Assembly (NCBI GenBank): GCA_964016885.1
Contig: OZ024740.1
Span: forward strand, 18,910,001 to 18,974,000
Direction of reading: 5' to 3'
From: Eledone cirrhosa
Lineage: Eukaryota
Length of the DNA: 64,000 nucleotides
Below, piece after piece: positions 1,399 through 32,291 of the stretch. Below the pieces are notes generated by a model. The model had not been told where the DNA came from. It searched no databases and worked only from the letters and a program-made list of their open reading frames with translations. Each line of letters starts with the position of its first letter. The stretch's first letter is position 1. The position numbers and the translations under genes are program-made.

Positions 1399-1533
1399 AC
1401 TCGTTGACAACGTAAACTCCGTTCCACTTATTCTAGTAGGCTTTTATATTTATATGTGAGCTGATAGAGTACAGTCTAAGGATTTACAGAAACCCATGAA
1501 GCTAGATTTAACACCTTTCTAGTGGGTCCGGGT
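1399..1533 (+). ncRNA. Hammerhead ribozyme, U3-A8 core variant, long stem II
   Basis: Stem I ACTCG/CGGGT; core TTGACAA 1404-1410; stem II C-GTAAA...TTTAC-A (78 nt); GAAA 1489-1492; stem III CCCA/TGGG with inner CTAGA/TCTAG; GTC 1526-1528. Confidence 0.75.
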
Positions 1534-2013
1534 ATGATTTTACATTCATTTAAATTATTGACGTATTGTTTTATTGATATTTTTTATCTGTTTGGCCCGA
1601 ATCTTCCTTTATCGATTTTAAATCGTATGGTTGATTGTAGACTTGTTCTATATGTGACGGTATTTTAACGATAGTTATAGCTCTGATTCATCTGAATTAT
1701 TGAGCCCTCTGCCGCTCATATCGAATTTCGTTTTTCGTGAACTCGTGCGCCGATTTTTCGATACTCGATCTTTCTAATATATTTAGCTCTGGACATAGCT
1801 ATCCACCAGTTAATTTTATTGCTCATTTTTTGTCGATTCTATTGAGTGATGAATAGCTTTTGTTTTATTTTAACATGTCTATTGAGCACTCTAATTCGAT
1901 ATGTGTATTTCCACATTCACTCGAATTGTTTTCGCGGATATAGGGGTCATCTCCCTTGTCTAATGCCATGTGCGTTTTTCACCGCTAGTTGACTCCTCTG
2001 CCGCCAGGAAAAA

Positions 2014-2148
2014 ACTCGTTGACAACGTAAACTCCGTTCCACTTATTCTAGTAGGCTTTTATATTTATATGTGAGCTGATAGAGTACAGTCTAAGGATTT
2101 ACAGAAACCCATGAAGCTAGATTTAACACCTTTCTAGTGGGTCCGGGT
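2014..2148 (+). ncRNA. Hammerhead ribozyme (second copy in the 615-bp array)
   Basis: Same sequence as 1399-1533, shifted by 615. Confidence 0.75.
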
Positions 2149-2779
2149 ATGATTTTACATTCATTTAAATTATTGACGTATTGTTTTATTGATATTTTTT
2201 ATCTGTTTGGCCCGAATCTTCCTTTATCGATTTTAAATCGTATGGTTGATTGTAGACTTGTTCTATATGTGACGGTATTTTAACGATAGTTATAGCTCTG
2301 ATTCATCTGAATTATTGAGCCCTCTGCCGCTCATATCGAATTTCGTTTTTCGTGAACTCGTGCGCCGATTTTTCGATACTCGATCTTTCTAATATATATA
2401 TATATATATATATATATATATATATATATATATATATTGAGAGAGAGAGAGAAAGATTATATATTTCATTATTTGTAGACCACGAAAAGATCATTTTTCC
2501 GAGAGAATTTCCATCCAACTGAATAACTCAATACACGTAAAGTGTAAAATATTTGAAAAGTTATATAATTCACAAAATTAAACTATTTATTTCTAATTTC
2601 ATCAAACCTTTGAAATTGCTACAATTCCTTGATTTTTATTCGTTTCTTTTTCAAAATAATTTCTGCCAGCAACTACTACAAATGGGTGCAGCAGTGTTGT
2701 GCGGTTAACAAGTTCACTCCACAAACATGTGATTCCGGCTTCAGTCTCTATGTGGCACCTTGTGAAATGTCTTTACAAT

Positions 2780-2932
2780 CCCAGTGTATTACTGGTACTT
2801 TATTTTATCGACCCCGTAAGGATGAAAGGGATAGTTAACCTCGTCGGGATTTGAACTCAGACCGTAAAAGGGACGTAACTATGCTAGAAAGCATGTCGTC
2901 CAACCCTCTACCGATGCTGCCAATTCACCGTC
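2780..2932 (-). mobile_element. SINE (abundant family with GCCTTTCATCCTTACGGGGTCGATAAAATAAAGTACCAG core)
   Basis: Same core at about 4146-4300, 11313-11450, 12681-12868, 13915-14075, 16699-16876, 28365-28544, 30344-30452, 36908-37017; head only at 46095-46184; B-box-like GAGTTCAAATCC. Confidence 0.75.
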
Positions 2933-3084
2933 TTAGACTATATACAATATTATATATAGACTATATAAAATATTGTCATAGTGTATATAATGTCTATTCT
3001 TGGTCAGTTAGAATGAATCATATTTAACTGGGTAATGTCTAAAAACATCTGACTGATAAAATGACAAGTTAATCAATCATATTG

Positions 3085-3243
3085 GTGGCCTCCCCACAGC
3101 CCCGGCGTACAGAACGGAGAAGGCGTTTACTCGGAGGACGGCAAGGGAGACGCGCTGGAAAAGCCATTTCAGCTCGCGAGGCTCACACCTGCGGCTGGCC
3201 AGCTCAGCGCCTATGGAGGTAAGTAAGGAGGTAGCCCTAGGTC
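3085..3243 (-). pseudogene. C-terminal remnant of an RLE non-LTR retrotransposon (CRE-like)
   Basis: RATSLLTSIGAELASRRCEPRELKWLFQRVSLAVLR; second copy at 4849-5125. Confidence 0.55.
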
Positions 3244-3373
3244 TATAGCCTCGGCTTAAAACGATACCTTCAGAGTGGAAGTTGTCTCTGTTCATATTCC
3301 GTAATTTAGCGGCTCGACATAAAAAGATATAAATAATATACGTATGAGATTTAAAAACAAAAATAAAAGCTAT

Positions 3374-3445
3374 TCCTCGGTAGTGTAGTGGTAAGTATCC
3401 TCGCTTGTCACGCAGGAGACCGGGGTTCGATTCCCCGCCAGGGAG
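3374..3445 (+). tRNA. tRNA-Asp(GTC), possibly a pseudogene
   Basis: TCCTCGGTAGTGTAGTGGTAAGTATCCTCGCTTGTCACGCAGGAGACCGGGGTTCGATTCCCCGCCAGGGAG; A and B boxes, GTC anticodon, TTTT downstream; one C-A mismatch each in the acceptor and anticodon stems. Confidence 0.85.
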
Positions 3446-3808
3446 GCTCAAATTTTAATGGTGGTGTCCCAGCATGTCCTCAGCCTCTCTGCTGGAACAT
3501 GTAATAGAGTAATAGAGTAAAGTAGTGGGCTTTATGTGATTGACTAAATCAAGGCAGTGCTCCAGGTTGGCCGAAATCTGTTAGCTGAAACCAGTAGAAA
3601 AAAAAAAGATTAAACACATTTGTAATATCTCTAGAGTAGCTTGACATTATCAATCACTTATTAAAATATTCCTAAACAGAGAGTGTGTAGTTAATATGAA
3701 GCATTATGAGAGATGTAGTAAAAGCCGATAGATTCCCTTTTAAAAGACAGTACAATGTGAGAGAAAAATACGAAGGACAAATGATGATAAATGAAACAAA
3801 AGAAAATA

Positions 3809-30021: not shown

Positions 30022-30614
30022 ATTTTTTAATATAAGGAACTGTTTCTTTGTTTTTATTCATTGTTTTTATTAATTTATATATATATATATATATATATAT
30101 TACTAAAACAGAGAATGTTTGTTTGACTGTCTGTCCAATCACTAAAACTCGAGAACCACCCAACCGAGTTTTTCCAAACTTTACACATGTAATACTTATA
30201 CTCCCATGAGTGTTTTGAGCAAAACATATTTCAAATTTTCAGTGCCCTAGGGACCACATAAGGTGATTTAGCGATCTCTCTCTATAATTCTTAGTCTTTC
30301 TCTTTTTAGATAGATACATAGATATAATGTTGCACCCTTATAATTGTTTCTTCTTTTGGCACAAGGCCAGCAATAACCCCGTGTATTACTGGTAGTTTAT
30401 TTTATCGGACCCGTAAGGATGAAACGCAAAGTTAACCTCCGCGGGATTTGAATATAATATCTGTCAGTATGGCTGGCTGTCTGCATTAGGTCATTATGGC
30501 GCGGTGTGTGTGTGTGTGTATGTGTGTGTGTGTGCGTGTATATAGTGTGTGTATATATATAGTGTGTAACCGTTTTCGAAATATTTACTTCTGCGTTCGC
30601 AGATTAATTATTTT

Positions 30615-30665
30615 AGTTTCAGAAGATCCCGTTAAGGGTGAAAAAAGCGATTCTTTGCTTAAACT
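30615..30665 (+). ncRNA. HHR-like motif with CAGAAGA core (family C), degenerate
   Basis: AGTTT-CAGAAGA-TCCCGTTAAGGGT-GAAA...TGC-TT-AAACT; related copies at 54187-54291. Confidence 0.45.
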
Positions 30666-30675
30666 TGAATCTGTT

Positions 30676-30821
30676 AGAAGAGGAAGACCAAGGTTAACGT
30701 ATGTTGATACCCTAAGGACAGACACTGGTCTGTTGGAGACGCAGGACATGGCAGCGATAATGAGGGACAGAGACCGCTGGAGAGAACTCGTCCATGGATC
30801 TCGGGAATTTTACCCGCCTTA
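30676..30821 (+). pseudogene. RTE-like LINE 3' end fragment (inverted partial copy at 32374-32472)
   Basis: [35 protein letters not shown]. Confidence 0.65.
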
Positions 30822-30842
30822 GATATATATATATATATATAT

Positions 30843-31290
30843 ACGTAGGTCCCGGGTTGAGTCGGGGATAACCACAGTAAGGTACTCAATACATGGCAGA
30901 GTAAAATTTTTTTATTTTATAGAAGGAGCTTCTACAGGACTAGTACTGTTTCATTCAGATGAAATCTTCAGGAAGCTGGGTGTCATATTAAGTTCTGGTA
31001 TTTATACATTTAGGTAGTGGTAAGGGAGGGGTGGTGGAAGGGGGGGGGGGTATTTAGGTACAGAGGACCACTTCATGGCACAGGCCGTTTTTTCTTTGGG
31101 GAGTGGTCAATTAGCCAGAGTGCTTTTTTGAAATAAATAAATAAGTAAATAAATAAATAAATGAATACATAGATAAAAGAATAAATAAATAAAATAAAAA
31201 AAAAAAAATAAAAAAAAATAAAAAAAATAAAAATAAATAAATAAAAACCCCAAGAATAGTAATTCAACAGATATATAGTAGGGAAATTTA
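30843..31290 (-). repeat. Family-A element, longest copy; inverted copy at 33985-34342
   Basis: 30939-31290 is the reverse complement of 33985-34342. Confidence 0.8.
30927..30977 (-). ncRNA. Type I hammerhead ribozyme (family A, complete)
   Basis: Minus strand AGCTTC-CTGAAGA-T.TTC(ATCT)GAA.T-GAAA-CAG(TACTAGTC)CTG-TA-GAAGCT. Confidence 0.8.
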
Positions 31291-31608
31291 GGTGGGTTGG
31301 TAATAGAAATTAAACATTTAACAAGACCGAATCATGGCACAGACAGGGGTGAGTGGTCAAGTTAACATACAAGCCACAGGTGGCCAGAGTGTTTTTGTTG
31401 GATGGAAAGAATAAAATATATTTACATACTCATAACCACATACAAAAACACTTACACACACATATATATACACACACATATTTTTACACACACATATTTA
31501 AACACTTACACACACATATATACCTATATATATATATATTATGAAGAGAGAAGAAACATTTAGATATAATTAGTAATAAAATGTATCATACCTAAACTGC
31601 TCCTAGAT

Positions 31609-31698
31609 TCCTCGACTACGTAGTTTCGTGGCATAAACAAAAACAATACATCATAAAGATATAGAGTCCTTGCGAGGTCTGCCGACTTATCAAGAGGA
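31609..31698 (-). ncRNA. Hammerhead ribozyme with U3-A8 core and long stem II
   Basis: Minus strand TCCTC-TTGATAA-GTCGGCA...TGCCAC-GAAA-CTACGTAG-TC-GAGGA; palindromic ACTACGTAGT stem III, GUC triplet. Confidence 0.8.
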
Positions 31699-32201
31699 TA
31701 CCTCATTTTACTAGTCTCAAGAACGCGTCTACACGACGTGAGAAAGAATCCCAAAAGGCGGAGGGGGAGATAGTCACGCGATATAACGGTCAAGAAACAG
31801 AGCTAAGCCTCTTATAACCCCGAAGAAAATACCACGGAGGCGGAGGGGGTATTTATATCGAAGCCGTAGAAGAGGTGGTGAAGGAGGCGAGAAGTATGAG
31901 TAATGGAAGCTTTCCAGCAGTCCCCACACTTCAAAGATTGCTCGACCAGAGGGAGTTATTAACAATATATTTAGAAACACACAGATACATGCGGACACAC
32001 ACATATACATGAATGCATCCGCACCCAACCGTGAGTTAAGGGTGCCAACTTCACCGATGTTGCTCAATGAATGACTGGGACAGACCAATCCGGTTGAACT
32101 AGACTGAACCAGTATCAGAGTTAAAAATACATTATGAAGAGAGAAGAAACATTTAGATATAATTAGTAATAAAATGTATCACACCTAAACTGCTCCTAGA
32201 T

Positions 32202-32291
32202 TCCTCGACTACGTAGTTTCGTCGCATAAACAAAAACAATACATCATAAAGATATAGAGTCCTTGCGAGGTCTGCCGACTTATCAAGAGGA
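32202..32291 (-). ncRNA. Hammerhead ribozyme (second copy in the 593-bp array)
   Basis: As 31609-31698, with stem II closing GTCG../..CGAC. Confidence 0.8.

Follow-up and report, generated by a model that had tools for sequence, protein, structure and literature searches.

Two unrelated families of tandem repeats, A and B, in the 64,000-nucleotide stretch of Eledone cirrhosa DNA that we analyzed (the window) are probably non-coding derivatives of Penelope-like elements, that is, non-LTR retrozymes, in which a type I hammerhead ribozyme keeps the tertiary pair between positions 3 and 8 as U-A. The assignment builds on the motifs themselves, the unit structure, the (TA)n 3' ends and the U3-A8 cores of A copies from outside this DNA, all of which are direct observations. 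The features are collected in Table 1.

Table 1. Features discussed in the text; positions are counted from the first base of the window.
Feature	Positions	Strand	Description
Family G fragments, head-to-head	721-913		another (TA)n-ending family; abuts the 5' end of A; 3' half only of a hammerhead-like motif
5' junction of the A array	913-914	+	array opens with the nucleotide that follows the predicted cut; no base common with the upstream element
Family A array	914-2391	+	two identical 615-nt units (914-1528, 1529-2143), followed by an incomplete one with (TA)n at its end
Type I hammerhead A1	1399-1533	+	core TTGACAA 1404-1410; stem II long, stem III full; 10.1-11.1 is C.A; predicted to be cut after 1528
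Type I hammerhead A2	2014-2148	+	core 2019-2025; GAAA 2104-2107; predicted cut following GTC, after 2143
Old inverted pair	3718-4114		minimal-hammerhead-like motif; TTGAAAA (3864, -), CTGAAGA (3963, +)
Family N, head-to-head Penelope-like remnants	28172-30078		C3-G8 hammerheads at 28357 (-) and 29893 (+)
Family B element	31534-32360	-	two direct repeats of about 240 nt, 593 nt apart; 3' end (TA)n
Hammerhead B, downstream copy	31609-31698	-	core TTGATAA from 31693; predicted cut after 31614
Hammerhead B, upstream copy	32202-32291	-	TTGATAA core starting at 32286; stem III a palindrome; predicted to be cut after 32207
A', related to A but diverged and truncated at the 5' end	34372-34674	-	z 15 against A
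Family F	50201-51681		unit of about 554 nt; C3-G8 hammerheads at 50256, 50810 (+) and 51198 (-)

Two repeat families carry U3-A8 hammerhead motifs

The A array comprises 2.4 units, each full unit with one type I hammerhead motif, and its two full units agree at 615 of 615 bases. The B element comprises 1.4 units of 593 nt, and its repeats, both U3-A8, differ by 3 substitutions in about 240 bases (about 1%). Because the copies within each family are thus identical or nearly so, they are not independent, and the replacement of C3-G8 by U3-A8 counts as two events rather than four. A preliminary description of this DNA had reported such cores in two unrelated families, and this is borne out: both are present, and no homology between A and B can be detected (z 0.0). 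Both families display the type I order (U4 G5 A6, A9, G12 A13 A14, A15.1-U16.1, H17), with a U3-A8 Watson-Crick pair in 4 of 4 copies. Like retrozymes, both consist of tandem units with a hammerhead, are non-coding and have a low GC content (0.36 in A, 0.43 in B). The longest stop-to-stop frame within the A array has 62 codons, a 134-codon frame in B has no Pfam match, and a frame encoding reverse transcriptase and a GIY-YIG domain between the repeats is absent from these units of 593-615 nt.

In A the 5' strand of stem I begins at 1399 and 2014. Stem I has 5 bp, stem III has 5-6 bp at the junction, and the spacing from core to GAAA is 78 nt. Position 10.1-11.1 is a C.A mismatch, as it is in A' and in families F and N. 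The three-way junction forms unforced when 146-161 nt are folded. The pairing probability of stem I is 0.56 in a short context versus 0.00-0.08 in four longer contexts, where forcing it costs 0.4-4.4 kcal/mol. An alternative A core, CTGATAGA, which lies inside stem II and lacks a stem I, was dismissed on inspection.

In B, stem I ends at 32202 and 31609, G10.1-C11.1 is present, and stem III is the palindrome ACUACGUAGU. Predicted folds give -66.7 kcal/mol for the dimer versus -52.3 for two monomers, with stem III formed between the copies at a probability of 0.97, and the three stems surround the core in this dimer fold. These models suggest that the B hammerhead probably needs the dimer. When the two-copy transcript is folded, the best structure lacks stem I, which counts against our preferred explanation. 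The cores are real, but the earlier statement that all three stems are kept is not supported without qualification, given the mismatch in A and the probable dimer dependence of B.

It had also been anticipated that standard searches would miss these motifs. None of the best 150 of 197 Rfam matches in the whole window is a hammerhead, and no hammerhead model matched 500-2300 or 31540-32360. This agrees with the expectation, but a canonical-core motif at 572 was missed equally, so that the power of the search is low.

Copies of family A and the 5' end of the array

Both public contigs that span the A core (one each from X1 and X5, two of the four sequencing runs compared out of 24 listed, and picked for near-identity to A) read U3 and A8. 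A CUGANGA consensus, which the preliminary description had named as grounds for abandoning its proposal, was looked for in A and not seen. Run X1 yields a single closed 615-nt contig with one difference from A and an unchanged core. The X5 contig departs from A by 8 substitutions and one gap in 156 nt, and retains U3 and A8; the free position N7 and position 10.1 have changed, and both changes in helices preserve pairs. Coverage in run X12 is limited to the part 3' of the A cut, and the raw-read run X19 contributed no reads. Within the window, A' keeps CAGAAACC, the bases GGTC and CGGG on the two sides of the cut and the 3' end of A, and its stem III covaries (CUGGA/UCCAG versus CUAGA/UCUAG); A' lacks positions 3 and 8. 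A metagenome pattern scan gave no matches for A/A' and none for B. Eight organism labels among 11 strong-match datasets hint at horizontal transfer, which we do not claim.

The array starts exactly at the base that follows the predicted cut. Families B and F start about 150 and 125 nt, respectively, upstream of their own cut sites, and this counts against our preferred explanation.

The 3-8 pair in other hammerheads of the window

Nine families with good stems were recognized, seven with C3-G8 and two with U3-A8, and none is mispaired except for one AU-rich match at chance level. By a hand estimate, such consistent pairing has p of about 0.003 if the families are independent. A Watson-Crick 3-8 pair is found in 14 of the 15 top matches (10 C-G, 4 U-A), and the sole exception, 15935 (A3.G8), was set aside because one such match agrees with the 0.84 expected by chance. 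Three further U3-A8 matches were set aside as probable chance, at 25256 (score 29.9), at 45952 (23.6, apparently within a decayed non-LTR fragment) and at 8555. An A3-U8 reading at 51177 turned out to be the CTGATGA core at 51198 read in the wrong register.

Family F shares the C.A at 10.1-11.1 with A, to which it shows no homology (z 0.3), and its stem III resembles that of B. The hammerheads of family N have a 101-nt stem II and the same C.A mismatch, and N contains a broken GIY-YIG-like frame (29365-29628, -). A full HMMER protein search found matches to this remnant, while a word-index protein search returned none. Pfam called none of 10 examined HMMER matches a reverse transcriptase or GIY-YIG protein; judging from motifs read in four of the sequences, the matches appear to be Penelope-like. 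The likeness of A to N is one of architecture: both combine the C.A with a long stem II, and in N this design lies next to a remnant of a Penelope-type endonuclease.

Alternative explanations

The elements might be genuine and their hammerheads inactive, or nearly so, with U3-A8 fixed in a founder and carried along ever since, as retrotransposition would not depend on a ribozyme. We regard this as unlikely, although several observations fit it. Naiad elements spread without canonical hammerheads (PMC8557442); minimal Penelope hammerheads cleave weakly in vitro; and among nine Xenopus retrozymes one cleaved in vitro and eight remained uncut (bioRxiv 10.64898/2026.07.22.740005). In long contexts other pairings displace stem I of A, and its 10.1-11.1 position is a mismatch. 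In addition, C-to-T and G-to-A changes are frequent here, affecting 17 of 69 C/G sites in the arms of the old inverted pair. Against this stand the occurrence of the double change twice, without any well-formed family carrying a single change, the sparing of the core in the diverged X5 copy, and the location of the A 5' junction at the cut site.

Second, the A and B copies could have come from C3-G8 families and have decayed by mutation once inserted. Decay does fit the old inverted pair: its arms differ in 46 of 193 columns, and the expectation for the double change by decay is about 0.06. The contrast between CTGAAGA and TTGAAAA at 3809-4018, to which attention had been drawn, is real and compatible with decay, and so carries little weight as evidence. 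B, moreover, is weakly similar to the C3-G8 family F (flank z 2.1, 2.2 and 1.7). Yet the A units are identical, the B repeats are about 1% apart with both U3-A8, and the A core recurs in contigs of two other studies. A motif near 13110 is visibly decayed; there the stems are broken and the core is altered, unlike in A and B. For A, decay is unlikely because the contigs keep U3-A8, the free N7 is altered in the diverged copy, and the predicted cut is exactly where the array starts; for the two families together we consider this account quite improbable.

Finally, chance matches of a loose descriptor in repeat-rich DNA would explain the missing Rfam hammerhead match and the 11 of 300 dinucleotide shuffles (bases 1-54600) that reach 29.9, and the descriptor was shaped after the motifs seen, with long stem II insertions allowed post hoc, so that this null is optimistic; but since only 2 of the 300 contain any match of at least 34.9, when A scores 34.9 and B 35.7, and given the conservation in A', the single motif per unit and the boundary at the cut, chance is highly improbable overall and largely refuted for A.

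Relation to known hammerheads

The U3-A8 core is not new: A and B are additional cases of a published swap, and what stands out most is the cut-site junction. About 1,300 U3-A8 hammerheads were described in Schistosoma Penelope-like elements (Cervera 2014, PMC4209133). Like A and B, the minimal hammerheads of Cercyon in Schistosoma mansoni are type I, U3-A8, located in Penelope-like repeats and missed by a CUGANGA descriptor. Unlike these, stem II holds 59-78 nt in A and B, in A stem III is full and 10.1-11.1 is C.A, the units are non-coding and about 600 nt long, and the host is an octopod. Perreault 2011 (PMC3088659) reports several natural hammerheads in which C3-G8 covaries to U3-A8, cites earlier in vitro activity of U3-A8 cores and reports a U.U mismatch at 10.1-11.1; C.A at that position combined with U3-A8 is absent from section 8 of that paper.

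Metazoan non-LTR retrozymes (PMC7229834; bioRxiv 10.64898/2026.07.22.740005) likewise are non-coding tandem units with one type I hammerhead each and a GC content below 45%. Their length range of 51-972 bp takes in A and B, and mobilization by Penelope-like elements has been proposed for them. Compared with invertebrate retrozyme circles (170-400 nt), A and B are longer, are known here from DNA, and have a non-canonical core and helix sizes. As described in PMC8557442, Neptune-type Penelope-like elements resemble the present ones in their 5'-truncated copies, both tandem and inverted, in targeting microsatellites and in carrying a hammerhead near the 3' end; A and B differ in encoding neither reverse transcriptase nor endonuclease.

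A possible mechanism and its implications

If A and B are retrozymes of this kind, read-through transcription of the tandem units would yield multimeric RNA, which might cut itself as a monomer through the full stem III in A and as a dimer through the palindromic stem III in B. A Neptune-type element could then supply the reverse transcriptase/GIY-YIG protein that copies the linear or circular product, with priming at (TA)n, on the unit's internal AU-rich motif. Selection for cleavage would preserve the 3-8 pair. Because the inserted copies are multi-unit, self-cutting is probably slow or incomplete. Tentatively, the junction between 913 and 914 may record in the genome that a hammerhead non-canonical in two respects (U3-A8 and C.A at 10.1-11.1), with a stem II of 78 nt, cleaved itself in vivo. 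Starting from (TA)n, a Penelope-type reverse transcriptase would have copied 2.4 units of A RNA as far as the 5' end made by the ribozyme, or as far as the joint where a circle was ligated, before switching to RNA from a different family.

The core swap being known, these elements add little to the understanding of catalysis. They do offer natural test cases for the combined tolerance of U3-A8, a mismatch at 10.1-11.1 and a long stem II, and are a reminder that such motifs slip past standard searches. A cut-site junction, if repeated genome-wide, would bear on two questions raised in the literature: in vivo cutting by Penelope-associated hammerheads, and the movement of retrozymes by Penelope-like proteins. 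If our reading of the junction is true, octopod genomes would hold many long-armed hammerhead families missed by standard descriptors and Rfam, the 3-8 pair would switch repeatedly, and the genome would preserve direct footprints of retrozyme mobilization by Penelope-like machinery.

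Predicted folding of the A and B hammerheads

The preliminary description had reported hammerheads with U3-A8 cores in A, a 615-nt tandem unit, and in B, a 593-nt unit, and had taken all three stems to be kept. Scanning bases 1-54600 with positions 3, 7 and 8 unconstrained recovered the motifs of both units at the reported sites, and A and B, supposed there to be unrelated, show no detectable homology (z 0.0). The claim for the stems holds in part. A forms its three-way junction unforced in predicted folds of 146-161 nt pieces; it also has a C.A mismatch at 10.1-11.1, where B has G10.1-C11.1, and the B monomer gives no hammerhead fold (stems at most 0.26). 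In most contexts the predicted pairing probabilities of A are 0.91-0.95 for stem II and 0.27-0.83 for stem III; that of stem I drops from 0.56 to 0.00-0.08 across four longer contexts, and the active form can be imposed at a cost of 0.4-4.4 kcal/mol. Two copies of B, with their palindromic stem III, are predicted to form a double hammerhead (-66.7 vs -52.3 kcal/mol for two monomers). When the transcript that actually holds both copies is folded, the stem III between them reaches 0.97, with stem I missing from the best fold. The loss of stem I in A would suit a ribozyme that is an inactive passenger; we consider a passenger unlikely, though the likeliest of the alternatives. The core of A lies within a near-perfect palindrome, CGTTG A CAACG (1401-1411 and 2016-2026), through which the cores of different copies might pair with each other, or the RNA misfold.

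Features of the window, with position, strand and remarks
Feature	Position	Strand	Remarks
Hammerhead core A, TTGACAA	1404, 2019	+	score 34.9
Hammerhead core B, TTGATAA	32286, 31693	-	score 35.7
A array, 615-nt unit	914-2391	+	head-to-tail; (TA)n end
A', diverged relative of A	34372-34674	-	end point as A; ribozyme 3' half kept
C3-G8 hammerhead	259	-	
C3-G8 hammerhead	572	+	
C3-G8 hammerhead	12570	-	
C3-G8 hammerheads, N	28357 (-), 29893 (+)		
C3-G8 hammerheads	30971/34961/49353	-	one family
C3-G8 hammerhead	49582	-	
C3-G8 hammerheads, F	50256, 50810 (+); 51198 (-)		
Three related non-LTR elements	18698-23983, 37172-39680, 40439-45698		endonuclease and RT frames; (ATT)n ends
Ty3-like fragments	17381-18550		
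15-bp satellite, ~626 copies	54619-64000		open in several frames
tRNA-like sequence	3374-3445		42.3 bits, exceeds Rfam gathering score
Near-perfect inverted and direct duplications	48044-48954, 53407-54315		adjoin (TA)n

Variation at positions 3 and 8

A second scan at a score of 28 or more gave 15 matches, of which 10 have C-G, 4 U-A and 1 A.G at 3-8; the mean counts in 200 shuffles were 0.005 for C-G and 0.06 for U-A, and 0.84 against the single A.G. By family, two carry the double change, seven are unchanged and none convincingly has a single change; a hand calculation that treats families as independent gives p ~0.003, a value that weakens about tenfold if one ancient event underlies both A and B. 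Four of 24 listed public sequencing runs, selected for near-identity, were compared with 1786-2392 of A. One (X1) contains a single closed contig of 615 nt, which departs from the window at one position (2088) and has its core. In another (X5) the core is covered by one contig at depth 3, with 8 substitutions relative to A and 1 gap over 156 nt; positions 3 and 8 remain U and A, N7 and 10.1 are altered, and both helix changes are pair-compatible. The X12 match stays outside the core, and X19 yielded zero reads. U3-A8 is thus present in both core-covering contigs, a count subject to the loss of rare variants from contigs, and for A this favours a genuine core over a decayed CUGANGA copy. Decay after insertion as the origin of U3-A8 appears improbable to us. 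At least half of the words of 1786-2390 are present in 11 public runs under 8 organism labels; since the raw data under one such label contain 0 reads of it, the labels are uninformative on which organisms carry A.

The arm pair at 3809-4018, cited earlier beside the paired changes, is weak evidence for them. The arms of 3718-4114 differ at 46 of 193 columns, with 17 of 69 C/G sites changed in like manner, so that a double change would arise by chance with a probability of ~0.06; the U3-A8 arm scores only 21.4 (equalled or exceeded in 186 of 300 shuffles), and in the C3-G8 arm the stems are damaged. For A and B themselves, chance motifs are very improbable: any match at 34.9 or above occurred in only 2 of 300 dinucleotide shuffles of bases 1-54600, a margin overstated because the descriptor was fitted after the motifs were seen, and the paired copies are non-independent, with no difference between the units of A and 3 substitutions between the repeats of B.

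The elements and their relatives

Among the reading frames examined, no plausible coding frame was found in A or B. B contains two ~240-nt repeats and a (TA)n end, and stem III of A' carries a compensatory change relative to A. In A, B and the C3-G8 family F (50201-51681) the (TA)n end coincides with a unit-internal AU-rich motif, which suggests target priming by microhomology. The A array starts at the base immediately 3' of the predicted cut and at that junction overlaps the upstream fragment of G, a (TA)n-ending family, by zero bases; the odds of such a start are 1 in 615 per end, or roughly 2% over the ~10 5' ends in the window, and the 5' ends of B and F lie away from their cut sites. The three copies of G (802-913, 47393-47552 and 53229-53395) are each 5'-truncated within ~25 nt upstream of GAAA, so that the first half of the G core is never seen; the truncation point is possibly a recurrent stop or fold-back site of reverse transcription.

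At least seven C3-G8 type I families occupy 55 kb of the window, none of them among the Rfam matches listed for it. C.A or U.U occupies 10.1-11.1 in many of them, and stem II is very long in some; the long stem II and C.A mismatch of A recur in F and N (28172-30078). B and F both have a palindromic stem III, with different centres, and comparison of their flanks gives z 2.1, 2.2 and 1.7; the likeness is no more than suggestive, and B may be distantly related to F.

On the 5' side of the N hammerhead lies a broken frame that resembles GIY-YIG; its Pfam match (E 0.0099) falls short of the curated cut-off, and CxxC stands in the next frame. A HMMER search gave 624 relatives of this frame at E 0.001 or better, and two of four inspected have a YRDD motif and cysteine linker upstream; these we take to be Neptune-type, in part from excerpts of PMC8557442. 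The same excerpts describe truncated Penelope-like copies, tandem and head-to-head, within microsatellites, an arrangement matched by copies of the A and B type. N itself comprises Penelope-like remnants head-to-head, one arm interrupted by a SINE-like repeat (28360-28545).

The window is AT-rich animal DNA packed with microsatellites and transposon pieces. Of the 120 matches listed in the protein search with an 845-codon reverse transcriptase (RT) frame (7472-10006), a single one bears an organism name, a protein of Argonauta hians at 62% identity, which makes an octopod the probable host. The frame, at 7472-10009, combines RT with zinc-binding and restriction-like endonuclease motifs and is flanked by (ATAC)n; we take this element to be R4/HERO-like. 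The elements ending in (ATT)n are presumably Tx1/L1-like, and a dispersed SINE seems to us to resemble octopus SINEs. The duplications are probably more fold-back insertions.

Discussion

As a whole, we think it likely, and likelier than any rival, that transcription runs through tandem units, that GUC would be cleaved slowly or partially (A as a monomer, B as a dimer), that the RNA may optionally circularise, and that a Neptune-type protein would copy it in trans at (TA)n. The repeat structure, cores and ends are features of the DNA itself; transcription, cleavage, circles and partner are what these features would imply.

In the available portions of the literature, C3-G8 to U3-A8 covariation in nature is reported, with in vitro activity of such cores cited (Perreault 2011, PMC3088659), as are ~1,300 U3-A8 minimal hammerheads associated with the Cercyon elements of S. 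mansoni (Cervera and De la Pena 2014, PMC4209133); the cores of A and B resemble both. Non-LTR retrozymes have been described (PMC7229834) and, in excerpts of a preprint, tied to Penelope-like elements, where cleavage was seen for 1 of the 9 elements tested (bioRxiv 10.64898/2026.07.22.740005); related excerpts are PMC6765202, PMC6155905 and PMC7151607. No title in the literature listings concerns octopod hammerheads, and similar forms may be covered in the work of Lunse et al. on variant hammerheads of Penelope elements. The U3-A8 variant is already known, and A and B themselves are new within a known class. Their motifs are real and, judged from sequence, the hammerheads are probably functional; the main value lies in the cut-site junction of A and in its uncommon combination of features.
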